From an uncultured virus (IMG/VR IMGVR_UViG_3300047546_001470) (taxonomy: Duplodnaviria > Heunggongvirae > Uroviricota > Caudoviricetes), in IMG/VR virus record IMGVR_UViG_3300047546_001470: DNA of 20,000 nt; one strand, 5' to 3'. Positions 1 through 20,000 of this stretch are shown piece after piece (the first letter of the stretch is position 1; each line of letters begins with the position of its first letter). The position numbers and the translations under genes are program-made. The notes below the pieces were generated by a model that saw only the letters and a list, made by a program, of their open reading frames with translations, was not told the origin of the DNA and made no database searches.

Positions 1-378
1 TCCGTAGGAATGAAAACCGATACAGTGTCTGTGTCTAAAAAACAATACGAAGATATGGCAATGTTAGTATATGAAGAACGTCTTGTCATGCCGTCTATAG
101 AACTTTTGTTTGAAGAACTTACAGAATTAAAAATAACAAAAAATGGTAAAAATGTTGATCACCCAAGAAAATTATCTAAAGACTTAGCAGATGCAGTTTG
201 CGGGTCTATTTTTGGGGCGATATCATATACCCCAAAAGATCAAAACCTTGAAGTTGAAGTTCATACATTTAGAGACAAACCACGTAGAGTTGACACGCTC
301 CCTGAGAACGTGATACAATATAAACCTAGTCAAATAGAAGATATTCAAGACTATTTGGATAGATTAAAAACAATATAA
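1..378 (+). CDS. terL: Terminase large subunit, C-terminal nuclease part (5' truncated by window)
   Basis: Frame is open from base 1. LFEELTELK...VDHPRKLSKDLADAVCG matches the TerL RNase H-like C-terminal 'DH....KD.ADA' motif. Confidence 0.8.
   Translation, partial: SVGMKTDTVSVSKKQYEDMAMLVYEERLVMPSIELLFEELTELKITKNGKNVDHPRKLSKDLADAVCGSIFGAISYTPKDQNLEVEVHTFRDKPRRVDTLPENVIQYKPSQIEDIQDYLDRLKTI
290..319 (+). promoter_or_regulatory. Sigma70/SigA-type promoter inside terL 3' end
   Basis: TTGACA (290-295), 18 nt spacer, TACAAT (314-319), preceded by TGn (extended -10). Upstream of the gene at 406. Confidence 0.7.
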
Positions 379-405
379 ACCAAAATGAATAATAAAAGGA
401 GAAAA

Positions 406-1554
406 ATGAATTCATTTAAGAAGATTGCTCTTGCCGTGGTTGCAGCCATGACTATGAGCACACTCGTAGTGACACCTGCAAGTGCCAATACCGTTTCTGT
501 TGACGTAACAACTGAAATTGCTGGCGCAGGTACTGCAGCCTCACCATTCACAGTTAAGGTTCCATCTGACAACGTAGTAAGCGTTGCAGATACCACAACT
601 GTCACAAATAACGAAGCACTTCTTATCACCGCTACAGTTGTTTCTGGAACACCAGTAACATTTACCGCAGTTGGTGCTAACACACGCCTCGTTTCTGCAA
701 TTGGTTCAACAGTTAATGCATCTGCTGGATCCTCATCAATCACAGTCACACCTGCTTCAACAACAGCGACTGTCTATGCATATACAACAAGTACTGCTGC
801 ATCTGCGGTTACAGTTTCTGTAGTCGGTGCAAGCACTACAATTTATCTTAAGGGTGTTGCAGGTCCTGCATATGAACTTAAGATGTCAATCCCTGCTTCA
901 GGAAATATTTCTGGCAAGGTAACTGCAACTCTTGATGTAGCAGATATTTTCGGCAACGCTGTTGCTGATACAGTAACTGTTACTACTCTTGGTGGCGCAA
1001 CTGCTGGAACAGTAACTGCTGATGCTCTTGTAACAGGTCGTTACACATCAGACATCACACTTCCTGCAACTGCTGGAACTGTTGCTGTTGGAGCATCTAT
1101 TACTGCACCAACATCTGTTCCAACAATCAAGTTGGCAACAACTTCTCAGACTGCAATCGTAACAGTATCTGATCTTGCTGGAGCACTTGCTACTGCCAAT
1201 GCTGCACTCGCTGCAGAAAAGGCTGCTCGTGCTGCTGATAAGGTAACTGCAGATGCTGCTCTCGCTGCTGCTGTAGCAAAGGCTGCAACTGATGCTGCTG
1301 CTGCTAAGGCTGCTGCTGATGCTGCTGCTATTACTGCTGCTGCTGAAATTGCAACACTAAAGGCTAATGCTGTAACCGCTAAGGTTGCTGCTGATAAGGC
1401 TCTTGCTGATGCAAAGGTTGCTGCAGATGCTGAACTTGCAAAGGTAAAGGCAGATAATGCTGCTGCTATCGCTGCAATGAAGAAGGCATTTAATGATCTT
1501 GCCAAGAAGTGGAACGCAAAGAATCCAAAGGCAAAGGTTACACTTGTTAAGTAA
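406..1554 (+). CDS. Secreted Ala/Thr/Val-rich surface protein (beta-rich N-part, Ala/Lys coiled-coil C-part), 382 aa
   Basis: AAAGGAG SD precedes ATG 406. Signal peptide MNSFKKIALAVVAAMTMSTLVVTPASA. Very strong codon bias. Followed by a terminator. Confidence 0.85.
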   Translation: MNSFKKIALAVVAAMTMSTLVVTPASANTVSVDVTTEIAGAGTAASPFTVKVPSDNVVSVADTTTVTNNEALLITATVVSGTPVTFTAVGANTRLVSAIGSTVNASAGSSSITVTPASTTATVYAYTTSTAASAVTVSVVGASTTIYLKGVAGPAYELKMSIPASGNISGKVTATLDVADIFGNAVADTVTVTTLGGATAGTVTADALVTGRYTSDITLPATAGTVAVGASITAPTSVPTIKLATTSQTAIVTVSDLAGALATANAALAAEKAARAADKVTADAALAAAVAKAATDAAAAKAAADAAAITAAAEIATLKANAVTAKVAADKALADAKVAADAELAKVKADNAAAIAAMKKAFNDLAKKWNAKNPKAKVTLVK

Positions 1555-1572
1555 TTAACAAATTAAAAGATG

Positions 1573-1605
1573 GGGAGTCAGGAAACTGGCTCCCTTTTCT
1601 TTTTT
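1573..1605 (+). terminator. Rho-independent terminator
   Basis: Stem GGGAGTCAG, GAAA loop, CTGGCTCCC (one G-U pair), then TTTTCTTTTTT. Confidence 0.9.
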
Positions 1606-1653: not shown

Positions 1654-3255
1654 ATTAAGAAATTAACCAGAATATTAACAGCAACTTTATTAGCATTTGG
1701 TTTTAACCTATGGCTTCCAGAAAACGCTAATGCCACTTGTGTAAACTTTATACAATCACAAACCATAGCAGCAGCATACAATGGTGATACAGAACCAACA
1801 GTACACACAATGGATACTTGTTCTGGAGACGATGTTTCTTATCAAATTCCTATTGCAAGCACAGTTACTTTTGACGGGGTACAGTATGAAAACATTTATG
1901 CAACAACTAACTCAGTAATTACATTTGGTCAACCTGATCCCACATATTGGGCATATCCTAATACACCATCTATCTCCTTATATTCAATGGACTGGTTTCC
2001 AGGAGCAAGCGGTACATCTGGTTTGGATATATATTATTCAGAGGGCGGATTTCAATTAAATCTAAATATGGTCCCATACGGTAACTATGGGGCACAACCA
2101 AGTACAGTAAATATATTAGTGGCTATTACTAATACTGGCGGTTTAGCGGTGTCCTATAGTTATCAAGGTCCAGAATATCAAAATCTTAGAACAGGAGTTA
2201 GACTTCATAATGGAGACATTGTTTCTTTAGAGGCTTGGGGAGCCACCCAAGTACAGGCTGGTAGTCCAACACCTACTCTTGCTCCAGAACCTATCCCAGA
2301 ACCTTCTCCAACGCCCACAGAAGCCCCTATAACACCAGCAGAGCAACAAGAGCAGGTGGCAGAGGCAGCACAGTTGGCTTCAGAAATATCAGATTTAAAT
2401 AATCTTATTGCATCTATTAATGGTGAAGAGGTAAATAACCCAGAGCCAGAACCTACCACAGACCCTTCTCCAGAGCCAAGTCCTGAGTCTACAAATGAAC
2501 CAGATTTGCCTGACCCTGATGTTGAGGTTGATCCAGAGATAATTACTCCAGATGATCCAAGATTCCCTGATGATGAAGAGCAAACTGAACCAGACGCTCC
2601 CAATCCAACTCCAAGCCCTGATACAACAGGTGGGGTAGACGAAGAGACTGATGCAACTCCAGAGCCTTCACAAGAGCCTTCACCTCAGCCAACGGATACA
2701 GATCCAACTCAAGAGCCTGAACCTGAGCAACCTGCTGACGAAGATCCTGTAGTAGCACCAGATAATGATAACACAAATAGCAGTCCTATTTCTGACGAGG
2801 AACTTAAGAAGTTAAATAAACTAATTAGTGTTAATGATTCTAAATTAATGTCAGCCGTATCAAACTTTTTAACTGAATTAAATCCAGAGGCTAAGAAAGA
2901 GTTGGCAAAAGATCTTGGTATTAAGGCAGAAGAAGTTGCCCTTATTGCAGAGGTAGCAAAAGAAAATCCTGTAGTAGCAGCAGCCGTAGTTCAATTTGCT
3001 GAAAAGGCAGCACAAAATGAAAATGCTCCCATGCCATATACCTTAGCAGATGCTGTAACAGAAATACAAACAGAGGCATTCTTAGCAGATCCGCTTGGCG
3101 TATTGACAGACATAGATTTTGAAAAGTTGTTAAGCCCAACAGAATGGGGTAAAGATATGACAGATGATCAGAGAGAAAAAGTTCAAGAGGTTGTGATCCC
3201 TGTTATTTTGGTAGGAAATATAGTTAGTTCAGTTATGTCACTAAGGAGGTTATAA
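1654..3255 (+). CDS. Secreted/membrane-anchored protein: N-terminal beta domain (NIDO-like motif), long Pro/Glu/Thr linker, helical domain, C-terminal hydrophobic anchor
   Basis: Frame is open from 1612. ATT at 1654 begins a signal-peptide-like IKKLTRILTATLLAFGFNLWLPENANA; first ATG is at 1810. VTFDGVQYENIYATTNSVITFG resembles the NIDO-type 'F.G..Y..iyv.tNg.isF' motif. Ends VVIPVILVGNIVSSVMSLRRL. Confidence 0.75.
   Translation: MKKLTRILTATLLAFGFNLWLPENANATCVNFIQSQTIAAAYNGDTEPTVHTMDTCSGDDVSYQIPIASTVTFDGVQYENIYATTNSVITFGQPDPTYWAYPNTPSISLYSMDWFPGASGTSGLDIYYSEGGFQLNLNMVPYGNYGAQPSTVNILVAITNTGGLAVSYSYQGPEYQNLRTGVRLHNGDIVSLEAWGATQVQAGSPTPTLAPEPIPEPSPTPTEAPITPAEQQEQVAEAAQLASEISDLNNLIASINGEEVNNPEPEPTTDPSPEPSPESTNEPDLPDPDVEVDPEIITPDDPRFPDDEEQTEPDAPNPTPSPDTTGGVDEETDATPEPSQEPSPQPTDTDPTQEPEPEQPADEDPVVAPDNDNTNSSPISDEELKKLNKLISVNDSKLMSAVSNFLTELNPEAKKELAKDLGIKAEEVALIAEVAKENPVVAAAVVQFAEKAAQNENAPMPYTLADAVTEIQTEAFLADPLGVLTDIDFEKLLSPTEWGKDMTDDQREKVQEVVIPVILVGNIVSSVMSLRRL
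2265..2760 (+). repeat. Low-complexity Pro/Glu/Thr/Asp coding repeats (PEP, PSPEP, PTPT)
   Basis: Translation: PTPTLAPEPIPEPSPTPT...PEPEPTTDPSPEPSPE...PEPSQEPSPQPT...QEPEPEQP. Confidence 0.7.
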
Positions 3256-3481: not shown

Positions 3482-3694
3482 AAGATTCGTCATATTTTAT
3501 TATCGTGTATACTTGTATTAGGCCTTAGTGGCTGCGGGTATGACGGTCACTATCGCTATCCTTGTCAGGATCCAGCAAACTGGGATAATAAGGAATGTAA
3601 TGTTCCTGTCTGTGAGACAACTGGCACATGTACAAGAGATATAATTGGAAAAGATGCTTGGGATGAGTATCAAAAAACGAAAGGCAATAAATGA
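3479..3694 (+). CDS. Small Cys-rich lipoprotein
   Basis: Lipobox LSGC after a hydrophobic leader, then four more Cys (YPC...ECNVPVC...TC). Confidence 0.75.
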   Translation: MKIRHILLSCILVLGLSGCGYDGHYRYPCQDPANWDNKECNVPVCETTGTCTRDIIGKDAWDEYQKTKGNK

Positions 3695-4134
3695 GCAAGC
3701 AAAGATTGACACCACAAGATCTTGATGCACGACTTAAGTTTATTCTTGGTTGTACATTAGGAGCAATTTTATTATTTACAGCATTGGGTATTTTATATGC
3801 TCTGATATTTGTAACTCAGCCAATAGGAGCACAATCAGAAAATGATAAAATGTTTTTCAATGTGCTTGGCTCAGTTGCAACATTTATTACAGGAACATTA
3901 GCAGGTTTATTAATTGGACAGTCTGGTGCAAAAGATATAATGGCTGCACAACTATCTAATAAGGAAATGGATGCTAAGAATACTCAAGCAGATAAAAAGT
4001 TAGAGTCTGAAATTAAAATGGCTGAAGATAAACTTGATGCAGAACTTGACGAGATAAGAGCAAGACTTGCAAAGAAGCCAGACGGCGCAATGCCAGAAGA
4101 ACAACCAGTTGATACAGAGTGGGACAAGGATTAA
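3691..4134 (+). CDS. 2-TM membrane protein with coiled-coil tail (holin-like candidate)
   Basis: Two hydrophobic helices (FILGCTLGAILLFTALGILYALIFV; FFNVLGSVATFITGTLAGLLIG) and a charged C-terminus. Immediately precedes the CHAP gene. Confidence 0.7.
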   Translation: MSKQRLTPQDLDARLKFILGCTLGAILLFTALGILYALIFVTQPIGAQSENDKMFFNVLGSVATFITGTLAGLLIGQSGAKDIMAAQLSNKEMDAKNTQADKKLESEIKMAEDKLDAELDEIRARLAKKPDGAMPEEQPVDTEWDKD

Positions 4135-4136
4135 TC

Positions 4137-4730
4137 ATGGCAGAAATGGGAACGGCAGAAAAATTAATTGAAGTAGCCAAAGGCGAAGTTGGAACTATTG
4201 AAGGTCCAAAAGACAATGAAACCAAGTACGGTAAGTTTACCAAGGCTAACTTTCAACCATGGTGCGGTTCATTTGTTATGTGGTGTGCCGATCAGGCAGG
4301 AGTAAAGGTTCCTAATACAGTTTATACTCCAGGTGGAGCAGCAGCATTTAAAAAAGCAGGAGCGTGGATTGATGGAGATGTAGCAGATCCAGAACCAGGG
4401 GACATTGCTTATTTTGATTTTCCATCTGACGGGGTAGATAGAATATCTCATGTTGGAATTGTTATTGAAGACAACGGAGACGGAACAGTTTGGTGCATTG
4501 AAGGTAATACATCTGGAGATAATAAAGGTAGCCAAAGAAATGGTGGAGAGGTTTGTAAAAAACTTCGTGCTTATAAGAAAAATAAGAAAAATGTTTTGAT
4601 TTCAATTGTAGGGTTTGGTCGCCCTAAGTTTGGCGGGGCAGTTGCAAAGAAATCTGATGAGCCTGCAAAGCCTAATAAGACTGCTAAAAAATCTAAAACA
4701 TGTCCAGAATGTGGACAAACTATTAAATAG
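4137..4730 (+). CDS. CHAP-domain (NlpC/P60 superfamily) cell-wall hydrolase, probable endolysin
   Basis: PWCGSFVMWC (catalytic Cys), PGDIAYFDF, SHVGIV (His), IEGNTS. AAGGA SD before ATG 4137. Confidence 0.9.
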   Translation: MAEMGTAEKLIEVAKGEVGTIEGPKDNETKYGKFTKANFQPWCGSFVMWCADQAGVKVPNTVYTPGGAAAFKKAGAWIDGDVADPEPGDIAYFDFPSDGVDRISHVGIVIEDNGDGTVWCIEGNTSGDNKGSQRNGGEVCKKLRAYKKNKKNVLISIVGFGRPKFGGAVAKKSDEPAKPNKTAKKSKTCPECGQTIK

Positions 4731-5334: not shown

Positions 5335-5538
5335 ATGAATCATATGGGTATGGAAGACTTGTCTCCAGAGGAACAAGAATTTGGTATTTGGCTGCAAAAC
5401 GGTATTGAAAGAGGCTGGATTAGCGACCCTTATTGTCACACACACGATGGTGGCTATGAGTATATGAGTGAAGAAGAAATAGAGGAATGGGAAGCAGGAG
5501 GCGACCCATGCGAACATGTCGTTAGGATCTTTATTTAA
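5335..5538 (+). CDS. Small acidic hypothetical protein, possible metal-binding (CxxHD...CxH)
   Basis: Own promoter. Motifs YCHTHDGG and GDPCEHVVR. Confidence 0.75.
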   Translation: MNHMGMEDLSPEEQEFGIWLQNGIERGWISDPYCHTHDGGYEYMSEEEIEEWEAGGDPCEHVVRIFI

Positions 5539-5539
5539 A

Positions 5540-7084
5540 ATGTGTATTGTTTGTATTTCTACGGTTACTGTAGCATCTTTATTAGCACCCACACCAACAC
5601 CAGTTGCACAAAATAGTGTAAGCGACTATACAGTTACTACAACAGCGTGTCCTAAATCAAAGGTAAATAAAATTGAAAATAATCGTATTTGCTTAAAAAG
5701 TGGAACAGTTTATAGATGGGCTGTCAAAAAGCCTGTTGTTGTTCAGCCTACACCAACACCTACGCCTACAGCAACACAAACTAAAACAGAGTTACCAACA
5801 TCAAATAAAAAATACTTTTTAAGTCCGTGTGAATTAGATCCCGATACCCCTAGCGAATGGAAGCAGTTTGAAAAGAAACATATAAATGGTGGAGGATGTC
5901 TAAGTCCGTTTAGGGTTCCAAAAACATCAGAACTTACATCTCTTCCTAAAATACAAAATAATTTTGTTACAAAAAATATTTTAGAGTGTAAATTAAATCA
6001 AAATCCACAAAAACAAAATACATTAGGGTTCAAAAATAACGATAAGTTTTGGATAGATTACCTAAAGCATCCATCACCAAATACTGTATACCAAGTAGTT
6101 CCCTTATATTCTAATGATATTCCAAACTCAAATACAAAGCCATCTGAAGATTTTAAGAAGTATTTTGATTTTCTTATTGATTGGACAAAGCAAGCATCCG
6201 ACAATGGATCAAACATACAAATAAAAGTACCAGATAAATATTTATATTTTCCAGGTAACATATCTTCTTATAATTTAATTCATGAAAGAAAACAATTTGA
6301 TGCAGAAAGATTTTCATCTGATTTAATAAAGTCAATAGATAGTCAAATTAATTTTACTAATGCAAATATAGTATTAGTTTTATTTCCACCTAGTACAAAT
6401 AAAATAGTTGGAGACCAAGTAGGTATTGGCACAATAAGAACAGATGAGGGTTTTGTAACTATATCTGTCATGCCAAGTGGTGGAGATCTGGCACAAGAAA
6501 GAAATTTTTCATTCCCAACCTGGTGGATACATGAATTAATGCATGTAGGAATTGGTTTTGATGACAACAATCATTCCCAAAAAGATTCTCCTCAATGGTG
6601 GGGATTAATTAATTGGGCGTCCTCATATGATCTATTAACATGGCATAAATGGATTGCTGGATATATTTCTGATTCACAAGTTATATGTTTAGATAAAGAT
6701 CGTGAGTCTGTTGCATATATAGCACCATCTACAGTAAAGAGCACAAGAAATAAGGCAGTCGTAATCCCAATAGATAAACAAAAGGCTATTGTTGTTGAGT
6801 CTCAAAGAGCAGAGGGTATAAACTATAAACTGCCACAGATTTCTGAAGGCGCACTTGTATATTTGATTGATATGTCAGTAACATCTCACGCCGATGGAAT
6901 TCGATTAATTTTGCCAGAAAATAAAAAAATGATACAGGCATCTAATATGGATAATAAGTCTCCTGGCCATAATTCTAATGCATCTTTAAAGTTAGGAGAA
7001 AGCGCAGTGTATAATGGAATTAAGATTACTGTTATTGAATCTGGAGAGTTTGGGGATGTGATAAAGGTTGAGCCAACAAGATGA
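5540..7084 (+). CDS. Secreted zinc metalloprotease-like protein (HExxH, M6/InhA-like)
   Basis: Hydrophobic N-terminus, PTPTPTPT linker, WIHELMHVGIGFDD, WGLINW, LLTWHKWIAGYI, IVVESQR, GALVYLID. Start is 5540 or 5516. Confidence 0.7.
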   Translation: MCIVCISTVTVASLLAPTPTPVAQNSVSDYTVTTTACPKSKVNKIENNRICLKSGTVYRWAVKKPVVVQPTPTPTPTATQTKTELPTSNKKYFLSPCELDPDTPSEWKQFEKKHINGGGCLSPFRVPKTSELTSLPKIQNNFVTKNILECKLNQNPQKQNTLGFKNNDKFWIDYLKHPSPNTVYQVVPLYSNDIPNSNTKPSEDFKKYFDFLIDWTKQASDNGSNIQIKVPDKYLYFPGNISSYNLIHERKQFDAERFSSDLIKSIDSQINFTNANIVLVLFPPSTNKIVGDQVGIGTIRTDEGFVTISVMPSGGDLAQERNFSFPTWWIHELMHVGIGFDDNNHSQKDSPQWWGLINWASSYDLLTWHKWIAGYISDSQVICLDKDRESVAYIAPSTVKSTRNKAVVIPIDKQKAIVVESQRAEGINYKLPQISEGALVYLIDMSVTSHADGIRLILPENKKMIQASNMDNKSPGHNSNASLKLGESAVYNGIKITVIESGEFGDVIKVEPTR

Positions 7085-8469: not shown

Positions 8470-9248
8470 GCGAAAAGCCATTAGACATAATTTTTACTCC
8501 AGCATTAAATGCACAGCCACATTGGTCAGTATGTCAAGTTGCACCAGAACCAGCAGTGCGTCATGTTCCAGAATGGTACAAAAGTCTTGCAAAACATGAT
8601 AATTGGAATGATGATAGATATTTAAATCCTGTAAATCATTTAGGTTCTGACGGCGCACAGGTTGCAACAAAAATGTGTTTACCATTTTTTGATGCCTTAA
8701 CGGCAGGGTATATGTATCTTTTAGAAGATGATTTACATGTTGATTTAGATCCAGACGGTAGACCAAAACTATCTTGGAATGGCAGCATAATGTTATTAGA
8801 TAAAAGGCCTACAAATGATATAGTAGTTCCAGATAACTGTCACCCCATGCACTACGGATTTAGAATGAATTGGTTTTATGATACTCCACCAGGATATTCT
8901 GTTTTAATTACTCATCCAATGAATAGACATGATTTGCCATTTTACACTATGTCTGGAATAGTCGAATCAGATATATGGGGCCTTCCTGTATTTATTGCAT
9001 TCTTTTTGAAGCGTGGATTTCAAGGTGTAATTCCAAAGGGTACTCCAATTATGCAAATAATTCCTTTTAAAAGAGATGATTGGGAAATGAGTATAGATGA
9101 GTCATATGATTCTGTAGATAAAAAATTATTAAAGGCCGAAGACAGAAGATCTTTACTATATGGATATTATAAAAAAACAACTTGGAGAAAAAAAATTTAT
9201 GGCATAAAGAATATATTTTCAAAGGATGCAAGTCACGACGATGAGTAG
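8466..9248 (+). CDS. DUF6065-like / dUTPase-like fold phage protein, paralog 2
   Basis: PEWYK, KMCLPFFDALTAGY, TPPGYSVLITHP, LPF, IPKGTPIMQIIPFKRDDW. ATGA overlap with paralog 1. Confidence 0.7.
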   Translation: MSEKPLDIIFTPALNAQPHWSVCQVAPEPAVRHVPEWYKSLAKHDNWNDDRYLNPVNHLGSDGAQVATKMCLPFFDALTAGYMYLLEDDLHVDLDPDGRPKLSWNGSIMLLDKRPTNDIVVPDNCHPMHYGFRMNWFYDTPPGYSVLITHPMNRHDLPFYTMSGIVESDIWGLPVFIAFFLKRGFQGVIPKGTPIMQIIPFKRDDWEMSIDESYDSVDKKLLKAEDRRSLLYGYYKKTTWRKKIYGIKNIFSKDASHDDE

Positions 9249-10095
9249 CATAGGCGTTGTAATTTATTCATATAAAGGTAAATTGCTTAAAGAAACTGTA
9301 AGGCAAATAAATGAAAATTTATCTGGTAGCCATACAGTTAATGTATACATTATAGATCAAAGTCCAATAATTAAAAATACTTATTATGATAACATTAAAA
9401 ATGTGGAGTATAAGCATAAGTTTTGGGACCATCCATACGGGCAATGTCACTACAGATTTGAAATTGCAAGAAATATTAAAGAAGATTTTACATTAATAAT
9501 TTCAGATAATATTTTTCTTTCAAAAAAATGGGACAGTATATTAATAGAAAATTATAAAGATAACTCAGTAATATCTGGAAAGGGAATACCAAATATAACA
9601 AACGATAACTTTTTTATATATAATAATAGCGTTGAATCAAACAATTTTTCTTTATCTCAGATAGTAAATAAAGATTTTATCTTTCTTAAAACTGAATTAT
9701 TTAAGAATACAAACTATCCAACATTTTTAAAATATAAAGGAGAGGCTGAGTATTTATCATTTTATTGGTTTACTAGAGGAGTAGATATATATTCATGTCC
9801 AACTGATTTTTATTCTGTTGAAGGTTTTAATTCTATTGACACAGTATATGTCCCATACTCTTTAACCCATAACTATAATGAGATTATAAAAATTATAAAT
9901 AATGAACCATCTAAGTATTTTGATCCTGGCAGCAAAAGATCTGTTTTAAATTTTATAGATCATCATAATATAAATAAAGATTCTATTTATCCATTACCAT
10001 TTTTAACAAATGACGTTGAATATGATTGTTATAATAACCCATTTGATAAACTAGATGGAAGAAAATTTATAGGCAGATTACATTATATATACTGA
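9241..10095 (+). CDS. Glycosyltransferase family 2-like (GT-A fold), divergent
   Basis: IGVVIYSYKG, VYIIDQS, FTLIISDNIFLSKKWD, GEAEYLS...GVDIY. The DxD motif appears degenerate. Confidence 0.55.
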   Translation: MSSIGVVIYSYKGKLLKETVRQINENLSGSHTVNVYIIDQSPIIKNTYYDNIKNVEYKHKFWDHPYGQCHYRFEIARNIKEDFTLIISDNIFLSKKWDSILIENYKDNSVISGKGIPNITNDNFFIYNNSVESNNFSLSQIVNKDFIFLKTELFKNTNYPTFLKYKGEAEYLSFYWFTRGVDIYSCPTDFYSVEGFNSIDTVYVPYSLTHNYNEIIKIINNEPSKYFDPGSKRSVLNFIDHHNINKDSIYPLPFLTNDVEYDCYNNPFDKLDGRKFIGRLHYIY

Positions 10096-10100
10096 TAGTG

Positions 10101-10118
10101 TATAATGTTAATAGGAGG
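10101..10118 (+). promoter_or_regulatory. -10 box plus SD
   Basis: TATAAT 10101-10106, GGAGG 10114-10118, ATG 10123. Confidence 0.6.
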
Positions 10119-10122
10119 AAAA

Positions 10123-10725
10123 ATGCATAGAATACATATTATTGATAATTTCATAGAGCCTATAGATGCTCTAACTTTAATTCAACAACAGAATGACCCA
10201 ATGGCTGTTAGGTTGCCTTACCCAGATTATTATAAAGAAAGATTTGGTGGAACTTCTTTGCCATACAATCCAACAATAATGTCTATATTAAAAAAATATG
10301 GAGACAAATCAAATGAAATACACAAAGAATTAAATGGATTTAAGAGTCCTATTTATGTATTTAAGGCGTTTGGGTCTCATTGGACAACTGGTACAAAGGG
10401 CGCACTACATTTAGATGCACAAGACCCAGAGCCATGGATAGAGTGGAGTACAATTATTTATTTAAATGAATCACCAGAGTATGAAGGTGGTAAAATATTT
10501 TTCCCAAATCAAGACTTTATCTATCAACCTAAAAGATATTCTGCAGTTTTTTTCCCAAGCGCTGGTAGTGAATATATACATGGAATTACTGAGGTAACTT
10601 CTGGTCATAGATATACTGCCTTATATATGCATACTTCTTTACCGCAACACGCAGATCCTGATTTCTTAGGAGAAGACAAAAATCCAAAATGGAGGGCACC
10701 AGAGCATGAGTTCAATTATTTATGA
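10123..10725 (+). CDS. 2OG-Fe(II) oxygenase (prolyl 4-hydroxylase-like)
   Basis: HLD...STIIYLN...YEGGKIFFP...FFPS...IHGITEVTSGHRY: HxD...H...R facial triad and 2OG-binding Arg. Confidence 0.9.
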   Translation: MHRIHIIDNFIEPIDALTLIQQQNDPMAVRLPYPDYYKERFGGTSLPYNPTIMSILKKYGDKSNEIHKELNGFKSPIYVFKAFGSHWTTGTKGALHLDAQDPEPWIEWSTIIYLNESPEYEGGKIFFPNQDFIYQPKRYSAVFFPSAGSEYIHGITEVTSGHRYTALYMHTSLPQHADPDFLGEDKNPKWRAPEHEFNYL

Positions 10726-11377
10726 TTATGATATTTTAGATTTAGGTTTAGTATATTATAAAAATGCACTACAGAATCCTCAAGAAATAATTGATATTGT
10801 TTCTTCTATAGACAACAAGTATAAAAATAATGAACACGCAGAATCATTTACAGAGGTAAAGCCTTGGCATGCTTGGCAAAATGAAAGTGCTGGAACTATG
10901 GAAACCTTTTGTTGGCAAAAATTTTTTCCTAAGCCAGAAGACGTTAAGTCAAATGATTATTACTATGAAGAACAATATTATGTATCCAAAAGACTTTATG
11001 ATGCTTTAGATGCTGCAACAAATCATTATAGTAATGTAATTTATCCATTTGCTGGAAGAAACATAAAGTCAAGAGAATACAGCATACATTTACTAAGATA
11101 TGAAAAGGGCGGATATTTACCAGCACACCAAGATCATGGGGTTAGCAGTAGAGTTTTGTCAACTGTTATGTACTTAAATAATGATTATGATGGAGGAGAA
11201 ATTTGTTTTCCAAATTCTAATATTAGAATGAAGCCAGAGCCTGGAAGCATAATTTACTTTCCATCAAATTATTTATATATACATGAGGTTGCCCCTATTA
11301 TAAATGGAACTAGGTATTCAATGCCACACTGGTACCATAATATGAAAACTCCAATTATGTCGACTGGTCAGGAATAA
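10706..11377 (+). CDS. 2OG-Fe(II) oxygenase (prolyl 4-hydroxylase-like)
   Basis: LLRYEKGGYLPAHQD...STVMYLNNDYDGGEICF...IHEVAPIINGTRYS. Confidence 0.9.
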   Translation: MSSIIYDYDILDLGLVYYKNALQNPQEIIDIVSSIDNKYKNNEHAESFTEVKPWHAWQNESAGTMETFCWQKFFPKPEDVKSNDYYYEEQYYVSKRLYDALDAATNHYSNVIYPFAGRNIKSREYSIHLLRYEKGGYLPAHQDHGVSSRVLSTVMYLNNDYDGGEICFPNSNIRMKPEPGSIIYFPSNYLYIHEVAPIINGTRYSMPHWYHNMKTPIMSTGQE

Positions 11378-12066
11378 TGCAATTTTATGAAAAATATTTA
11401 TTAGATAGCCCAGAAATTGCTTCTATATTTTGGCAAGAAGAGGGGATGCCAGATTATAAAAAACACATAGGTAAGAATAATGTTACATACAAATTAAATT
11501 CTAATGGTCTTAGATGCGATGAATTAATAAAAAATCATCAAGAAAAAACCCATATATTGTTTAATGGTTGCTCAATAACTGCTGGCATTGGCATTAATAT
11601 GGAAGACACCTGGGCATATAAAGTATATTCAGATTTTAATAACACATCTGGATTTTTTAATATATCACTTCCAGGGGGATCAATAATAGAAATTATAACA
11701 AATACAATTAAATATATTGAGTTATATGGTATACCAAATTATATTTTTCTTTTACTTCCTCCAATACACAGGGAATCAAGGTATATTAAAAAACATTTTA
11801 TAAATAACTTTGTTTATAACTATTATTATATTTTAGAAAATTATTGTAAAAAAAATAATATAAGTCTTTTTTCTACATCATGGGCAGATAAAAAAAATTA
11901 TCAGATGTTTGAACAATTTAAAACATTTCGTGCTCCAGATTTTAAGCAAATAGACTATTACGGAGAAGAATTGCATGGTGACGATAACCATCACCCTGGC
12001 AAAAGTATCCATGCTTTCTGGTATAATCAATTTAAGGACAGATATGAAAATTCTTGGAATAAATGA
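11377..12066 (+). CDS. SGNH/GDSL hydrolase-like protein
   Basis: LFNGCSITAG (block I variant), NISLPGGS (block II), DDNHHPGKSIH (DxxH block V). Confidence 0.65.
   Translation: MQFYEKYLLDSPEIASIFWQEEGMPDYKKHIGKNNVTYKLNSNGLRCDELIKNHQEKTHILFNGCSITAGIGINMEDTWAYKVYSDFNNTSGFFNISLPGGSIIEIITNTIKYIELYGIPNYIFLLLPPIHRESRYIKKHFINNFVYNYYYILENYCKKNNISLFSTSWADKKNYQMFEQFKTFRAPDFKQIDYYGEELHGDDNHHPGKSIHAFWYNQFKDRYENSWNK
12019..12027 (+). promoter_or_regulatory. Extended -10 promoter inside gene end
   Basis: TGgTATAAT, followed by AAGGA SD and ATG 12044. Confidence 0.55.
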
Positions 12067-13480
12067 AACCACACATGATGCTTCTATTTCTTTAATAGAA
12101 GATGGAGAAATATTATTTGCTGCACATGCTGAAAGATTTAGTAAACAAAAAAATGATTGGTTTACTAATGACAAATTAATAGAGTATGCACTTTCATATG
12201 GAAAGCCAAACAAGATTGCATACTATGAAAATAGGTTGCTAAAGAAAATTAGAATTGCTACCCGTGGCGGATTTGGTGGAGATAAGCCATATTATTTGCA
12301 GAAAAAAGAACTCAAATGGATTCCACGTGAATCATTTAGCCATCATTATTCTCATGCAGCAGCAGGATACTATACAAGTAAGTTTAACGATGCAGTTATA
12401 GTAGTATTAGATGCAATTGGAGAATATAACACTTCAACCATATGGGTTGGCCAAGGATCAAATATTAAGCAAGTTTATAAAAAAAATTATCCATTTAGTT
12501 TTGGATTGTTTTATTCAGCATTCACGCAACTGGTAGGGCTAAAGCCAAACGAGGAAGAGTATATTTTTATGGGTATGGCAGCCTACGGTGATTGGACTAA
12601 ATACTATTTAAAGGTAAAAGAATATTTCCCAAACATAGAAGAACAAAAATATGCATTTCATAACGGAATATTAGATTGGAATAGTCCAATATTGGAGCAA
12701 GATAAGTTTGATATTGCAGCAGCAGTTCAAAAAGTATATGAAGACAGATTAGTTAACTTTATGGCAATGGCACAAAAACTTACGGGCAAGCGCAATCTTG
12801 TTTTTATGGGTGGATGTGCATTAAACTGTGCAGCAAATACCATGCTTTGGAAAATGTTTGATGATGTTTGGATTATGCCTAATCCTGGAGATGCTGGATC
12901 TTCTTTAGGCGCAGCAGCAGCATCTTATGGAAGTCATATTAATTGGGAGCACCCATATTTGGGATATGATTTAGGCGGAGAATATCCTGTAACAGAAATT
13001 ATTACCGAATTAATTAGAAATAAAATCGTAGCGGTTGCAACGGGGAAAGCGGAGTATGGCCCAAGAGCACTCGGAAACAGATCTATTTTGGCAGACCCAA
13101 GGGATCCAAATATTAAAGATAAGGTTAACCTTATAAAAAAGAGAGAATTGTTTAGGCCCTTTGCTCCAGTAGTTATGGAAGAACATGCAAGCAAATGGTT
13201 TGATATGAACTTTGCAAGTCCATATATGCAATATGCAGTTAAATGCTTACAACCAGATAAGATACCGTCAGTTGTTCACAAAGACGGAACTTCAAGAGTT
13301 CAGACTGTAAATAAAGATCAGCATCCAGGACTATACACTGTATTATCTAACTGGTATTCTATTACAGGAATTCCAATATTATTAAATACAAGTTTAAATA
13401 TAAAAGGTCAGCCACTATTAAATGATAAGGCAGACATATTTGAATGGGAAAAAACCTACAACACAAAGATAGTCCGATAA
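12044..13480 (+). CDS. Carbamoyltransferase (NodU/CmcH/TobZ family), 478 aa
   Basis: MKILGIN..HDAS, ERFSKQK, HHYSHAAA, DAIGE, GGCALN, PGDAGSSLGAA, EYGPRALGNRSIL, RELFRPFAP, HKDGTSRVQTV, LNTSLN. Confidence 0.95.
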   Translation: MKILGINETTHDASISLIEDGEILFAAHAERFSKQKNDWFTNDKLIEYALSYGKPNKIAYYENRLLKKIRIATRGGFGGDKPYYLQKKELKWIPRESFSHHYSHAAAGYYTSKFNDAVIVVLDAIGEYNTSTIWVGQGSNIKQVYKKNYPFSFGLFYSAFTQLVGLKPNEEEYIFMGMAAYGDWTKYYLKVKEYFPNIEEQKYAFHNGILDWNSPILEQDKFDIAAAVQKVYEDRLVNFMAMAQKLTGKRNLVFMGGCALNCAANTMLWKMFDDVWIMPNPGDAGSSLGAAAASYGSHINWEHPYLGYDLGGEYPVTEIITELIRNKIVAVATGKAEYGPRALGNRSILADPRDPNIKDKVNLIKKRELFRPFAPVVMEEHASKWFDMNFASPYMQYAVKCLQPDKIPSVVHKDGTSRVQTVNKDQHPGLYTVLSNWYSITGIPILLNTSLNIKGQPLLNDKADIFEWEKTYNTKIVR

Positions 13481-14202
13481 TGAAAAAGGTAGTATTTGCT
13501 GCTACTCCAATAGGAGATAGTTCTCATATTGCTATTGCATTAAGAAATTATTTAAAAATAACAGATATAGCAATTGTTGAATCAAAAAATGTTTTTGAGC
13601 AATTATGTAAAGATAATGAAGCAAATATTTTAAATATATATGAAACAAAAGACAATACAAAAAAAATATTGGATATTATTATTAATGGTGTTAATAATAA
13701 CAAAAATATATTAATTGTTTCAAATGACGGATACCCAACAGTGCAGGATCCTGGAACAGAAATACTACATGCTTTAATCAAAATGAACATAGATATTGAC
13801 ATAATACCTGGGCCAAGTTCTGTATTACAATCTTTATTTTTTTCTGGATTTGAAGGAAAATTTGGAGAATTTTATTTTGCAGGAAGACTTAGGGATAAGA
13901 ATACAAAAGAATTTTTAAATAATATTAAAAGTCTTTCTTGCCCTATTATTTTAATATGTATACCATTTTTAGATAAATATATTGATGATATAGCAGAAGT
14001 TTTCCCAGACAGAGAAATAGCAGTTTGTTGTGATATTAGCAAACCTACTCAAAAAATATTAAGGGGTAAGACAACAAAAATGAAAGACATTATGAGTAAT
14101 TACAGAAAGTTTCCATTTAACTTTGATCTAGTATACGGATGGAAAACTAATATTCATATGTTTTATTCACACTATACGCTTGTAATATCACAAGCAAAGT
14201 GA
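13480..14202 (+). CDS. rsmI: RsmI-like SAM-dependent methyltransferase (tetrapyrrole methylase fold), divergent
   Basis: ATPIGD, LIVSNDGYPTVQDPG, IIPGPSSVLQSLFFSGF, IAVCCDISK match RsmI TPIGN / VSDAGTP.I.DPG / PGPSA...AL..SG / RELTK. TAATG overlap. Confidence 0.75.
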   Translation: MKKVVFAATPIGDSSHIAIALRNYLKITDIAIVESKNVFEQLCKDNEANILNIYETKDNTKKILDIIINGVNNNKNILIVSNDGYPTVQDPGTEILHALIKMNIDIDIIPGPSSVLQSLFFSGFEGKFGEFYFAGRLRDKNTKEFLNNIKSLSCPIILICIPFLDKYIDDIAEVFPDREIAVCCDISKPTQKILRGKTTKMKDIMSNYRKFPFNFDLVYGWKTNIHMFYSHYTLVISQAK

Positions 14203-14721: not shown

Positions 14722-14982
14722 ATGTTTAGTATGTTAAAAAATAAAGAAGAAGAGCAGGTTTGGCTTCTTGATGCCACAGATCGCTGTGATCGTTGTGGTG
14801 CTCAAGCGTATGTTAAAGTAATCGGGAAAAATGCATCAGATCTTTTATTTTGTGGACATCACTATAACAAGGCAATGGATAATGCAATTGGTTATGATAA
14901 TATGATGAAGTTTGCATTAGAAATAATTGATGAAAGATTAAGGCTTGATGAAAATAGAACTAAGGGAGAATCATATTCATGA
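14722..14982 (+). CDS. Conserved actinobacterial-type small Zn-binding hypothetical protein
   Basis: LDATDRCDRCGAQAYVKV...LLFCGHH...IIDER. GAAAGG SD before ATG 14722. Confidence 0.75.
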   Translation: MFSMLKNKEEEQVWLLDATDRCDRCGAQAYVKVIGKNASDLLFCGHHYNKAMDNAIGYDNMMKFALEIIDERLRLDENRTKGESYS

Positions 14983-15674
14983 TCGTACAATTTTTTGGAA
15001 TGGATGAAAAAACAAGAACTGATGTTTCTATAGCATATGCAGAAAGAACAAACTCTTGGCATGTTCTTGATACCGATCTCCCAATGGCTGAGTTGCAAGC
15101 CCAATATGCTAGGTGGCTAAGAACTATATCAATTTTTTTTACAAAAGATTATAATTCGTCAATTGTTGTTAGTGGGTATTTCCCTACCAAGGAATCGAGA
15201 GATCAGTTTAGAGATATTAGTGGGTATATGCATTTGTCTAACACTGTAAAGTTTCCAGACATATCAGTTTGGGTTGATACTACCGATAAGAAAGAGTTTG
15301 TAGATAAATTTGGTAAGACTATTTTGTGGGAAGAGCCAAACGAAAATGAATATGACTTTAAAATAACAAATACTGGTAATGAATATCTTGATGCTTTGCC
15401 AACTAGAGCGTTTAGCGTTATTAAAAAATATGAAACATTTGACTGGAAGCCAGAACAAACATTGATGGTTGGAAAATTCCAGCCCTGGACTGAAGACGAT
15501 TTAAAAAAATATAATATGCTTTCTGAAACTAGAAATGTAGTAATAGGCATAAGGCATTGTATGGGTATGAGTGATGAAGATAAATTTTCTATTAATCAGA
15601 TTAAGGAAATTATTTTTAAAGATTTGCCTAATGCTGATATAATTGTCCTTCCTAATATCATAGAGGTGGTATAA
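14979..15674 (+). CDS. Degenerate APS-kinase-like / HxGH nucleotidyltransferase-like fusion
   Basis: Recognisable scaffold (MIVQFFG..., IVVSGYFPTKESRDQF, PDISVWVDT, FDWKPEQTLMVGKFQPW, VVIGIR, IIVLPNI), but the P-loop and HxGH motifs are missing. Confidence 0.6.
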   Translation: MIVQFFGMDEKTRTDVSIAYAERTNSWHVLDTDLPMAELQAQYARWLRTISIFFTKDYNSSIVVSGYFPTKESRDQFRDISGYMHLSNTVKFPDISVWVDTTDKKEFVDKFGKTILWEEPNENEYDFKITNTGNEYLDALPTRAFSVIKKYETFDWKPEQTLMVGKFQPWTEDDLKKYNMLSETRNVVIGIRHCMGMSDEDKFSINQIKEIIFKDLPNADIIVLPNIIEVV

Positions 15675-17741: not shown

Positions 17742-18668
17742 ATGTTTGTTTATGGTGACTACGGCAATCCTAATGTTTTACGTGGCAGATATAATGTTAC
17801 TATCCCAAAAGAAGGAACTGTTTGGCCTGTTTTAACAAAGGTAGAAGAGAAAGATGCTCTTGGAAGATTTATAGACAAGCAAGAAGTTCATTTGGTTATG
17901 TGGCAAAAAAACTTTTTGCATGCTTTTTGTAATATGGTTCAATACATACTTTATTACTTTAATTTAAATAAAGATGCACATTTTATTTTGATGTTTGGAT
18001 TAGATTTTCATGAAGGCGATTTAGAGATAACTCATGGTAAATTTATTTTAGAAATGTTAAATAACAAAGGAGTAAAATATGAAATAGTAAAATTAAAAGA
18101 AGAAGAGATTAATGTAAACGATGCATATTATATGAAGGTAATTCCATTTTCTTCATATGTATTTTCAGAAGTATATGACTATTGCAGTTCTTTTATAGAC
18201 AGAAACAATACTCCAGAAAAAATAGTATATTTAGCAAGATCAAAAGTTACACCTAAGTCTGTTGTCAGTATTTCAAATGGTAGAGATGAGGACACACTTA
18301 GAATAAAAAGTGATTTAAGAATTGATGACGAAGATGTTTTAATAAACTATTTTAAAGGTCGTGGGTTTGAAATTGTATATCCAGAAAATTTTAAAACTTT
18401 TGAAGAACAGGCTATATTTTTTAATAATGTAAAGACTATGATCTGCCCTTCTGGATCTGGGATGGCAAATCTAATGTTTATGCAACCAGGCCAGACGGTT
18501 GTAGAGTTGCAGACACCAGTTCTAATTGGTGGCAATCAGCAGGTACACCCATTCTATGTAGCATTCTCTTGGGCAAAAAAACATACATATATTGCAATAC
18601 CCCATGAAAGAAAATCTGATATAATAATAGAGTATTTTAATAATAAAGGATTTTTAAATTATTTATGA
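17742..18668 (+). CDS. Glycosyltransferase family 61 (DUF563)-like, paralog 1
   Basis: NFLH, IVYLAR, LRIDDE, GFEIVYPE, FEEQAIFFNNVKTMICPSGSGMANLMFMQPGQTVVEL. Confidence 0.85.
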   Translation: MFVYGDYGNPNVLRGRYNVTIPKEGTVWPVLTKVEEKDALGRFIDKQEVHLVMWQKNFLHAFCNMVQYILYYFNLNKDAHFILMFGLDFHEGDLEITHGKFILEMLNNKGVKYEIVKLKEEEINVNDAYYMKVIPFSSYVFSEVYDYCSSFIDRNNTPEKIVYLARSKVTPKSVVSISNGRDEDTLRIKSDLRIDDEDVLINYFKGRGFEIVYPENFKTFEEQAIFFNNVKTMICPSGSGMANLMFMQPGQTVVELQTPVLIGGNQQVHPFYVAFSWAKKHTYIAIPHERKSDIIIEYFNNKGFLNYL

Positions 18669-19630
18669 TAAGGCAAAGTCCAGTAGATACTGTACATTAT
18701 CCAGGAATATATACTATAGAGGATGACTTTAATGCAGGTAAGCCTATAATAACAGAGATTTCAAAAGAAGATTGGAATAATAAAGATTTTCGTTTAGAAA
18801 AAATACAATATGCTGATAATTTTTTTGAAGAAACAAAATTTAAAAAAATAGTAGTTAGATTTGAAACAAATTTTTTTCATAGTCTATTAAACACTCTAGC
18901 ACCAATATTATGGGAGTATAAAAAAGATCCTGACATAGAGGTTATACTATTACATCCAAGCAAAGAACTTTCTGCCTTCCACTCAACTGGAAGTTTTGTT
19001 GTTCAAGTATTAAGAAATTATAATATTAAGTTTTCTGTAACACAAATACATTCAAAATATCCACCTATTTTTTCAAATTTTTATTATTATGAAAATATAG
19101 AAATGTGTGGAGAATACATAAATATTTTAGAAGATCTTATAAGTAAATATAGAAATAAATCTTTGCCCAATAATAAAAAAGTATATATATCTAGAGGATC
19201 AAAACAAAATTTATCTGTAACACAACTACATCAAATGACAAAAGAAGAAATAGAAAAATTACCTTATCAGGATGATTTAAGAATAGATGACGAAATTAGT
19301 GTAGAAAATTTATTTAAAAAGCATGGATTTGAGATAGTTGATACTGACATATTTAAAACTGTTGAAGATCAAATAAGATTTTTTGATCAGGTACAGGTCG
19401 TTGCTGGACTGTCTGGATCTGGCTTAACTAATTTATTATTTATGAGAGATAAAACCACAGTTATAGAGTTGAGCACCATTCAAATAGTTAGACAAAGAGC
19501 AGAATTTCATTATCATTTTTTCTTAATAGCAACTCTTTGGGCTAATAAAAAATATATATCCATTCCTAATATTTCTAGAGAATATGGTAAAATAGAATAC
19601 GATCTAGAAAAAATGTTAGGCCTATTATGA
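18665..19630 (+). CDS. Glycosyltransferase family 61 (DUF563)-like, paralog 2
   Basis: NFFH, KVYISR, LRIDDE, GFEIV, EDQIRFFDQVQVVAGLSGSGLTNLLFMRDKTTVIEL. Confidence 0.85.
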   Translation: MIRQSPVDTVHYPGIYTIEDDFNAGKPIITEISKEDWNNKDFRLEKIQYADNFFEETKFKKIVVRFETNFFHSLLNTLAPILWEYKKDPDIEVILLHPSKELSAFHSTGSFVVQVLRNYNIKFSVTQIHSKYPPIFSNFYYYENIEMCGEYINILEDLISKYRNKSLPNNKKVYISRGSKQNLSVTQLHQMTKEEIEKLPYQDDLRIDDEISVENLFKKHGFEIVDTDIFKTVEDQIRFFDQVQVVAGLSGSGLTNLLFMRDKTTVIELSTIQIVRQRAEFHYHFFLIATLWANKKYISIPNISREYGKIEYDLEKMLGLL

Positions 19631-20000
19631 CAAATATATTAATTCCTATAGCAGGTCTCGGCAGTAGATTTCCTATAGAAACTTATAAAACAACAAAGCC
19701 ACTTATTAAAATAAATGGTAAAACAATGATAGAACATGCAATTGAATCTCTGTCAATAAATGGCAATTATCATTTTGTTATAAGAGATAGTATATTTTTT
19801 GACGAACTATATTCTGTATTAAAAAACATAGACAGTTCATGCAATATTATAAAAATAGATAAATTAACTAATGGACCAGCAGAGACATGCCTTATTGCTA
19901 AAGATTATATAAATAACGATGACGAACTAGTTATTGCTAACTCAGATCAAATAATGTGGTGGGACTCTGATTTATTTTTACAGGTAGCACGTAATTCTAA
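19627..20000 (+). CDS. Sugar-phosphate nucleotidyltransferase (NTP_transferase family), 3' truncated; absent from ORF track
   Basis: MTNILIPIAGLGSRFPIETYKTTKPLIKINGKTMIEHAIESL...TNGPAETCLIAKDYINNDDELVIANSDQ. ATGA overlap with the upstream gene. Confidence 0.9.
   Translation, partial: MTNILIPIAGLGSRFPIETYKTTKPLIKINGKTMIEHAIESLSINGNYHFVIRDSIFFDELYSVLKNIDSSCNIIKIDKLTNGPAETCLIAKDYINNDDELVIANSDQIMWWDSDLFLQVARNS

Follow-up and report, generated by a model that had tools for sequence, protein, structure and literature searches.

A single gene was analysed in a stretch of 20,000 nucleotides (nt), here called the window, of an uncultured virus (IMG/VR record IMGVR_UViG_3300047546_001470). The gene lies directly behind the probable large terminase gene (terL), at 406–1554 on the plus strand (coordinates without a locus name are those of the window), and its coding sequence specifies a protein of 382 amino acids (aa) plus stop, designated P0001. 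The product would appear to be the phage's own variant of a surface fibril of the host, which docks on the envelope, re-surfaces the infected cell and most likely blocks adsorption; a probability of roughly 0.45 is assigned to this reading as a whole. Its broader part, namely that the product is exported, directed to the envelope, not a component of the virion and homologous to a surface protein of the host, is considered likely. Blocking of adsorption as the function under selection is put forward tentatively. An earlier note on this DNA had proposed a host-adapted, very highly expressed surface protein; its range, 290–1605, comprises the gene plus its promoter and terminator.

The earlier note had reported that all 25 lysine codons of the gene are AAG and that TTA, ATA and AGA do not occur. 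A recount agreed: the gene contains 25 AAG and 0 AAA, TTA in 0 of 21 leucine codons, ATA in 0 of 16 isoleucine codons and AGA in 0 of 3 arginine codons. The disfavoured codons are abundant in the other 31 open reading frames (ORFs) of the window, as had also been stated, with 340 AAA against 144 AAG, 225 TTA among 434 leucine codons and 246 ATA among 515 isoleucine codons. Calculated from the frequencies in those ORFs, the binomial chance of the observed choice is 6.9e-14 for Lys, 2.2e-7 for Leu and 3.1e-5 for Ile. The G+C content at third codon positions (GC3) is 0.217, compared to about 0.22 in the other ORFs; thus, the bias is one of codon choice and not of G+C content or foreign base composition. 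The G+C content of the whole gene (0.458) is due to the composition of the product, which is rich in Ala, Thr, Val and Gly. Contig-wide, the same codon pattern was found only in a capsid-like gene (1 AAA, 15 AAG, 0 TTA, 0 ATA), in a candidate for the major tail protein with an immunoglobulin (Ig) domain (1 AAA, 6 AAG) and, less strongly, in the SSB gene (7 AAA, 13 AAG). With weights derived from these capsid, major-tail and SSB genes of the same phage, the codon adaptation index (CAI) of the P0001 gene was 0.757, which is rank 2 of 79 ORFs (median 0.54). Fifty-three distinct homologs keep the bias (AAG 1286, AAA 130; TTA in 52 of 1321 Leu, ATA in 11 of 790 Ile and AGA in 5 of 127 Arg codons). 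Since it is maintained in these homologs, the bias reads as a signature of high expression and suggests that the codons are selected for efficient translation of a product made in very large amounts. There were no tRNA genes on the contig.

Metatranscriptome contigs agree weakly with high expression. Parts of the first 8 kb of the window are contained in 16 RNA runs from 14 studies; these data consist of contigs with one word-depth figure per contig, which is a poor measure of expression. Four runs from four studies were compared along the window, and neither runs with a small share nor uncovered stretches were used as evidence for absence or habitat. RNA contigs over the gene had greater word-depths than those over its neighbours in all four. 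Run X1 contains this phage (7 of the 8 listed pieces, spread over the window, with 0–2 mismatches), and its word-depth was 197 over the gene, 63.9 over the next gene and 6.9–19.6 over the other six pieces. For runs X6, X8 and X11, the depth of bins over the gene exceeded that of bins past 2 kb by factors ranging from 10 to more than 100. The predicted mRNA, from a start near 326 behind the promoter inside terL to an end near 1605 at the terminator, has a length of about 1.28 kb; many public contigs with family members are only 1.0–1.9 kb long and match the size of this transcript, which is only a hint, as not all of them need be RNA assemblies. Very high expression, as claimed previously, is therefore supported by the CAI, by the bias in the 53 homologs and, weakly, by the contig depths of run X1.

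Expression signals of its own had likewise been ascribed to the gene, and these were found to be conserved or conspicuous. A promoter-like site, TTGACA-18-(TG)TACAAT, is present at 290–319 on the plus strand, inside the 3' end of terL (1–378, plus strand; the full ORF has 595 aa and begins beyond the 5' end of the window). Of 12 positions in this site 11 match; it includes the upstream TG and has the joint best score in the window. Promoter-like sites are not enriched in the window overall (103 found, 98 expected). The motif TGnTAnAAT is conserved to at least 90% in 46 distinct upstream sequences; the terL codons which overlap it differ among subgroups, yet the motif is kept. A strong Shine-Dalgarno sequence, AAGGAG (396–401, plus strand), stands 4 nt ahead of the ATG, and the string which includes it, AAGGAGAAAAATG, is nearly invariant among the upstream sequences compared. 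Behind the gene an intrinsic terminator (1572–1605, plus strand) consists of a hairpin at 1572–1595 with 10 pairs, 6 of them G-C, and a 4-nt loop, followed by a T-run. Five terminator-like sites occur in the window; this one far exceeds the other four, which have 6 pairs with 3 G-C, and is the only clear one, as had been noted. The 5' leader of the gene matched no Rfam family, every match being far under the gathering score; its fold as a single sequence did not stand out (z -1.9, with 11 of 200 shuffled sequences folding equally well), and RNAalifold on 20 leaders gave zero consensus pairs.

The N-terminus of P0001 was read from the sequence as a Sec signal peptide (residues 1–27; 406–486, plus strand), with KK, a hydrophobic core and TPASA followed by N. 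Residues M1, S3, K5, K6, P24, A25 and A27 are invariant in 29 sequences, including the P-A-x-A cleavage region, and residues 1–27 are the most conserved segment of the phage family, which argues for export. An AlphaFold2 model (predicted local distance difference test (pLDDT) 85.5 overall, below 50 for residues 1–25) contains two tandem Ig-like beta domains (residues about 28–140 and 141–255; 487–1170, plus strand), which are the variable part, and one helix of about 115 residues (257–372; 1174–1521, plus strand), rich in Ala, Lys and Asp. The Sec signal, beta-rich domains and Ala/Lys helix predicted from the letters were thus borne out by conservation and by the model. Foldseek matches were to invasin/intimin Big_1 and to the Ig-like domains of SbsC/SbsB, at query TM scores of just 0.15–0.36, i.e., generic Ig-like; matches in BFVD included tail and Big-domain phage proteins.

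The length of the helix varies among relatives, and 11-residue repeats occur in relatives. Modelling of two copies of residues 250–382 gave a parallel in-register dimer with a score of 0.63 (best control 0.00); at least 99% of contacts agreed between runs, and the partner pLDDT was at least 94. Among proteins of known structure, 20 of 30 solved as pairs and 1 of 23 solved as single chains came up to the mark for this score, and the pass may partly reflect the likeness of coiled coils to many solved ones. The model supports pairing of the helix as a dimer; a higher oligomer is also possible.

The C-terminus is formed by a basic module recognised by conservation among relatives, KKAFNxLAKKWNxKNPKAKVxLVK, with a final Lys (1471–1551, plus strand). 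The last 27 residues are the best conserved part of the mature protein, with a ratio of non-synonymous to synonymous substitution rates (dN/dS) of 0.25, compared to 0.40–0.52 elsewhere (Ig domains, 0.40 and 0.52). Invariant in 29 sequences are K359, F362, N363, L365, A366, W369, N370, N373, P374, V378 and K382. A C-terminal Lys is present in 118 of 121 relatives, and two of the three exceptions carry chimeric tails. P0001 has 0 Cys codons, and its sequence contains no LPXTG signal, lipobox or membrane helix; an internal LPATAG (residues 219–224) lies inside Ig domain 2 with no membrane stretch after it, and the protein ends with ...NPKAKVTLVK. Pfam, PHROGs and NCBIfam gave no match for P0001, including structural or wall-anchoring (SLH) families, and profile A1 matched sequences of the PDB only at chance level (E at least 0.079). 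Fused forms were not found, since none of the proteins of 670–2000 aa had the C-terminal module, which is weak evidence.

A profile search of 1.84 billion representative proteins yielded 321 clusters, including a large subfamily of 310–340 aa whose proteins start with MSKKLIAV and are reached by profile A1 at E 1e-19 to 1e-31. Comparison of A1 with A4, the chromosomal subfamily, by hhalign resulted in a probability of 100 and E 4.7e-50 over 263 columns, comprising the signal peptide and both Ig-like domains. BLASTP of P0001 against one member, P0282, showed 33% identity over 218 aa (E 5e-13) and, in addition, 42% over the last 52 residues; these share the C-terminal motif, which is YNKLAKRWNKKNPNNKVALLK in the host homolog. 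The name of P0282 at NCBI is 'MAG: hypothetical protein [Actinobacteria bacterium]' (MAG, metagenome-assembled genome). No member of the MSKKLIAV subfamily was found in two IMG/VR scans; its genes are located on contigs of about 50% G+C beside cellular genes. Pfam analysis of three loci (L185, L191, L212) placed a sigma-70-like gene (477 aa) ahead of the homolog in each of them and recognised a response regulator in all three. In L191 and L212 these genes are followed by an EamA transporter. Also recognised were a threonine-aldolase-like lyase, upp and a deaminase in L191, and NrdI in L185; the upstream protein of a fourth locus (L198) matches the sigma-like protein of L191. Two host-type paralogs are present in L185 (5494–6435 and 7497–8471), with a LuxR-type regulator between them.

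The chromosomal gene, too, has its own strong terminator and 61 AAG versus 10 AAA, compared to 485 versus 306 in its flanks. Clusters neighbouring the chromosomal subfamily in the Atlas fall in Actinomycetota and viruses, and the three nearest Atlas clusters of P0001 are 99–100% viral. In a quick maximum-likelihood tree, a branch with an SH-aLRT (approximate likelihood-ratio test) value of 98 parts 31 viral rows from 20 chromosomal or single-gene-contig rows; the tree does not orient the transfer. P0001 and all 31 viral rows stand in phage contexts and not in chromosomal ones, and hence belong to a phage subfamily of the superfamily; the C-terminal Lys is found in all 20 host-type rows. A tblastn search of all phage ORFs against the host loci yielded nothing and was insensitive, as P0001 itself was missed. 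Judged by sequence, host homologs of the phage gene exist, since a sister subfamily resides in actinobacterial chromosomes. The earlier note had named a lack of host-encoded homologs as an argument against its proposal; a chromosomal subfamily was found instead. Of the 32 host-type loci (L186–L216), 23 are contigs of 1.0–1.4 kb with just the family gene, and the leader measures 83–98 nt in 17 of these 23. Contigs of this kind are to be expected if abundant mRNAs were assembled, or if assemblies break around a hypervariable gene.

IMG/VR contains at least 422 relatives of P0001. The gene is situated directly 3' of terL in 77 of 82 loci; two loci start inside the gene, and three have it after an HslV-like gene. 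To avoid circular ascertainment, terL was used as the query, which returned 80 loci, 69 of them with at least 150 nt 3' of terL. The gene stands right behind terL in 68 of these 69, and only the most distant locus (terL 64% identical) is without it. Thus, it is a core gene, syntenic in the phage clade, and not a sporadic insert or moron. Non-synonymous change (pN) is about twice that of terL (0.22 versus 0.11), and the identity of the gene is partly uncoupled from that of terL (terL 99% and gene 85%; terL 74% and gene 92%). A second phage group bearing WhiB has the gene away from terL, where its member P0281 is placed between protease/thioredoxin and 2-oxoglutarate (2OG) oxygenase genes. In the clade of the window the gene is found outside the head-tail structural module, between terL and the lysis genes and far from the capsid-tail block. 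Both positions are in accordance with the former view that the product is not a virion protein.

Deposited phages of INPHARED gave no match in tblastn. A scan for close relatives in GTDB species genomes showed two loci (L002, L003) on short MAG contigs labelled Beijerinckiaceae and Bacteroidia; since the gene order equals that of the phage clade, the contigs are probably mis-binned phage DNA. Cultured Planktophila phages were also considered as members of the same group; at 39 kb and 44.8% G+C, according to the part of the source available (PMC10202952), they belong to a different one. Behind terL in L151, L153 and L154 (e.g., L153:5291–6979) a protein of 562 aa is encoded, which has the same signal peptide and a different body and ends with ...CPTGYKKK. 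This tail is weakly similar (30% over 106 aa, pairwise E 4e-4) to the tails ...CPKGFRQK and ...CPAGYKR of exported proteins beside the host homolog. Automatic names of five relatives (P0030, P0074, P0095, P0323 and P0342) conflict with each other ('subtilase-type serine protease', 'cell division protein FtsB', 'lipoprotein-anchoring transpeptidase ErfK/SrfK'), and none is backed by a domain match.

From these data the following course of events can be proposed. The gene would be transcribed from its own promoter inside terL to its own terminator. Translation would start from a strong ribosome-binding site, which is invariant, and would use those codons which prevail in the most expressed genes of the phage. 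The product would be exported, with cleavage of the signal peptide after ASA, and would pair through the helix, so that a stalk carries the variable Ig tips. The C-terminal module may dock at those envelope sites which are used by the family member of the host, and the phage protein would overlay or replace the host variant on the infected cell. Infected cells and debris could then become poor targets for phage adsorption, by masking of receptors or superinfection exclusion. Tips which vary, a gene which evolves fast and a high dose of the product would all fit such a block of adsorption.

The same properties allow other explanations. One would be maintenance of the coat as a protection against grazers: the phage could supply coat protein as host expression fails, so that the protective layer of the infected cell is maintained or even thickened. 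In a long latent period fewer cells would then be ingested or digested by flagellates. Tarao et al. (2009) reportedly dealt with structures on the cell surface of freshwater Actinobacteria and with their resistance to grazing. A homolog of a host surface-type protein with a high-expression signature would suit this purpose, and a protection of infected cells by freshwater actinophages against predation by protists has been proposed (Kavagutti 2019, PMC6802176, in the part available). This explanation is nevertheless regarded as unlikely, since the exposed domains are just about 33% identical to the host version and evolve fast, which is unexpected of a like-for-like replacement, and since the coat of the host would already be in place.

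Secondly, the protein could assist release, by competing through the shared C-terminal module for the anchoring sites of the coat, which would loosen it for passage of the endolysin and the virions at lysis. Immediately downstream of the gene a conserved block begins, which comprises the second exported protein, two small proteins and the lysis genes (membrane protein and CHAP endolysin); the C-terminal motif is common to the host family. A role in release appears improbable in view of the second phage group, where the gene is away from the lysis genes, and of the separate promoter and terminator, which do not make it part of a lysis operon; also, a plain competitor needs no variable Ig domains.

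A soluble, secreted factor, which acts away from the cell, e.g., as an adhesin, aggregation factor or decoy, would explain why P0001 has a Sec signal and yet shows no recognised domain for binding to the wall and neither lipobox, membrane helix nor sortase signal. Within the mature protein, conservation is strongest in the C-terminal module and at the terminal Lys, both of which are shared by the chromosomal family; this argues for a docking function and makes a released factor quite improbable. Least credible is an Ig-like decoration or fibre of the virion whose N-terminus merely resembles a signal peptide: codons like those of the capsid and major-tail genes, the frequent occurrence of Ig-like domains on virions and the BFVD matches to tail and Big-domain phage proteins stand against a canonical signal peptide as the best conserved segment, a location outside the head-tail module which changes between phage groups, homologs in bacterial chromosomes beside housekeeping genes, and the lack of a structural match in PHROG, Pfam and NCBIfam.

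The preferred reading, in which the phage has its own version of a surface fibril of the host and re-surfaces the infected cell with it, has to be weighed against several points. The dN/dS of the gene is 0.46, which is less than 1, and even this value is too high, since dS is low in a gene under codon selection. The chromosomal homologs are on contigs of about 50% G+C, compared to 33.7% for the phage, and the codon choice of phage and chromosomal genes differs for Asn, Tyr, Asp and Leu. The contig word-depths are weak evidence for expression. Retention on the cell is suggested by the conserved C-terminal module only, and a role of the host homolog as phage receptor or major coat protein is hypothetical. 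Late expression is suggested by codon use like that of the capsid gene and by the neighbouring lysis genes; if this prediction holds, the protein would come late for classical superinfection exclusion, and masking of debris would fit better. Of the host-adapted surface protein proposed earlier, high expression, export, a non-virion position and the existence of host homologs are supported; Nanopelagicales as the host are conjectural, with homolog contigs of about 50% G+C and one homolog named only 'Actinobacteria bacterium'.

A more far-reaching version can be formulated, which is considered a long shot. Abundant freshwater Actinobacteria might have in this family their main surface coat of fibrils, which would also be a phage receptor; the invariant C-terminal Lys would be tied to peptidoglycan by host L,D-transpeptidases, as in the Braun lipoprotein Lpp, here in a monoderm. 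The phage would flood this route late with a divergent variant, which would amount to serotype conversion by a lytic phage and would hide infected cells and debris from adsorbing phages.

The window belongs to a virus record of 66,136 bases, which is 61% complete, has a G+C content of 33.7% and contains all genes in one direction. The gene order on the contig starts with the capsid-like gene, head-tail genes, a tape measure protein of 2,649 aa and tail genes, followed by a replication block (DnaB, primase, a DNA polymerase of 1,092 aa, a UvsX-like recombinase, a Cas4-like nuclease and RuvC). Then the probable large terminase and the gene discussed here are found, followed by the second exported protein, two small proteins and the lysis genes (membrane protein and CHAP endolysin). 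After the endolysin there are an HslV-like peptidase and many modification genes, among them WhiB, the presence of which suggests an actinobacterial host. Support for the terminase label comes from a single PHROG match (phrog_17415 'terminase large subunit', E 4.4e-12 over 69 residues); no match was obtained for this protein in Pfam or among sequences of the PDB. No integrase was seen on the contig, which is 61% complete, and the clade is apparently siphovirus-like and lytic.

The second exported protein (1654–3255, plus strand), whose position after the gene is conserved, has its signal peptide upstream of the first ATG and uses a non-ATG start (ATT here, ATA in relatives) behind GGAGG. It consists of a highly conserved N-domain of 175 aa, a linker rich in Pro, Glu and Thr, and a C-terminal membrane helix; the AlphaFold2 model of the N-domain (pLDDT 55) was too poor for a fold search. 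The lysis genes (3691–4730, plus strand) encode a membrane protein of 147 aa and the CHAP endolysin (phrog_21825 endolysin, E 5.4e-26; PF05257 CHAP, E 1.3e-11). At 5516–7084 a protein of 522 aa is encoded, with a signal-like N-terminus and the zinc-protease motif HELMH; its match to M6 metalloproteases (E 0.0022) is weak and far under the cut-off. The regions 9226–14202 and 17742–19998 contain two 2OG-Fe(II) oxygenases, a carbamoyltransferase of the NodU/CmcH type, a TP_methylase-like protein, two GT61 glycosyltransferases and a nucleotidyltransferase; these modification genes might act on DNA or on cell-surface glycans. An ORF at 14979–15674 has a sub-threshold Pfam match to a Scabin-like ADP-ribosyltransferase (E 0.0073, 16.6 bits, cut-off 27); ADP-ribosyltransferase toxins have been described in freshwater phages (Kavagutti 2019, PMC6802176, in the part available). 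Elsewhere in the same virus record, tryptophan-halogenase-like genes are found (L005:12063–13514 and L004:1145–2683; phrog_2928, E 1e-87 and 3e-135).

Freshwater Actinobacteria are among the most abundant bacteria of lakes, and to our knowledge almost nothing is known about the surface of their cells, about the receptors used by their phages or about how these phages deal with the envelope. The gene ties together a large phage clade, a fast-evolving, unannotated gene family of the host and a conserved C-terminal module with a putative docking function. If the proposal is true, the family would provide a concrete candidate for the surface coat or receptor of the host, and the phage would be a lytic one which invests capsid-level expression in re-surfacing its host. 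Some freshwater actinobacterial hosts can now be cultured, and therefore both ideas should be testable.

In the literature searched, no description of the P0001 family or of its host counterpart was found, nor any paper treating both Nanopelagicales and the surface layer (S-layer). The closest known relative is the chromosomal MSKKLIAV family of freshwater Actinobacteria (about 310–340 aa), with which P0001 has in common the Sec signal, two Ig-like domains, a helix and the module [YW]NxLAx[KR]WNxxNPxxKVxLxK with its final Lys, and which shows the same preference for AAG and has a terminator of its own. The phage proteins differ by being located across a well-supported branch, by a signal peptide MNSFKKIAL..., a much longer helix and only about 33% identity in the Ig domains. 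M-protein-like designs are known among surface fibrils of Gram-positive bacteria. P0001 resembles such fibrils and S-layer proteins in its signal peptide, variable distal part, coiled-coil stalk and predicted conserved C-terminal attachment end, as well as in a monocistronic, codon-biased gene with a signature of high expression; Foldseek matches included the SbsC/SbsB domains. Unlike S-layer proteins, it possesses no SLH, LysM, LPXTG or other known wall-binding module, and the fold matches are generic with low TM scores; unlike sortase-anchored proteins, it lacks a C-terminal LPXTG, hydrophobic stretch and basic tail.

The Braun lipoprotein Lpp is a trimeric coiled coil, the C-terminal Lys of which is linked to peptidoglycan by L,D-transpeptidases. 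In the P0001 family, too, a coiled coil precedes the C-terminal Lys, which is nearly invariant, and P0281 showed a sub-threshold match to PF04728 LPP (E 0.002, 18.9 bits, cut-off 29.1); P0001 itself had no LPP match. Differences to Lpp are the absence of Cys and a lipobox, a cleavage site of the signal peptidase I type, the much larger size, the Ig domains and a monoderm host. With Ig-like decoration proteins of virions (Hoc-like, Big_2 tail domains) P0001 shares tandem Ig-like domains, and it is distinguished from them by a cleavable signal peptide, a gene outside the structural module and chromosomal homologs.

Phage genes which alter the surface of the host are already well known. Surface-conversion and exclusion proteins include the Lc porin of PA-2, Llp of T5, Ltp of TP-J34 and Lom/Bor of lambda; these are mostly lipoproteins or outer-membrane proteins of phages with diderm hosts and are often expressed from prophages at modest levels. 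Envelope proteins have been reported in huge phages (bioRxiv 10.64898/2026.10.24.761521, in the part available). P0001 resembles the conversion and exclusion proteins in being a cell-surface-type protein encoded by a phage, here a homolog of a host protein. Proteins of the Ltp/Sie/Llp type have a lipoprotein or membrane anchor and block adsorption or entry of DNA; P0001 shows neither lipobox nor membrane helix, and a blocking activity would be putative. It differs from the examples named in that its gene belongs to the core of an apparently lytic, siphovirus-like clade, shows codon adaptation at the level of a capsid gene and is associated with monoderm Actinobacteria as the host group.

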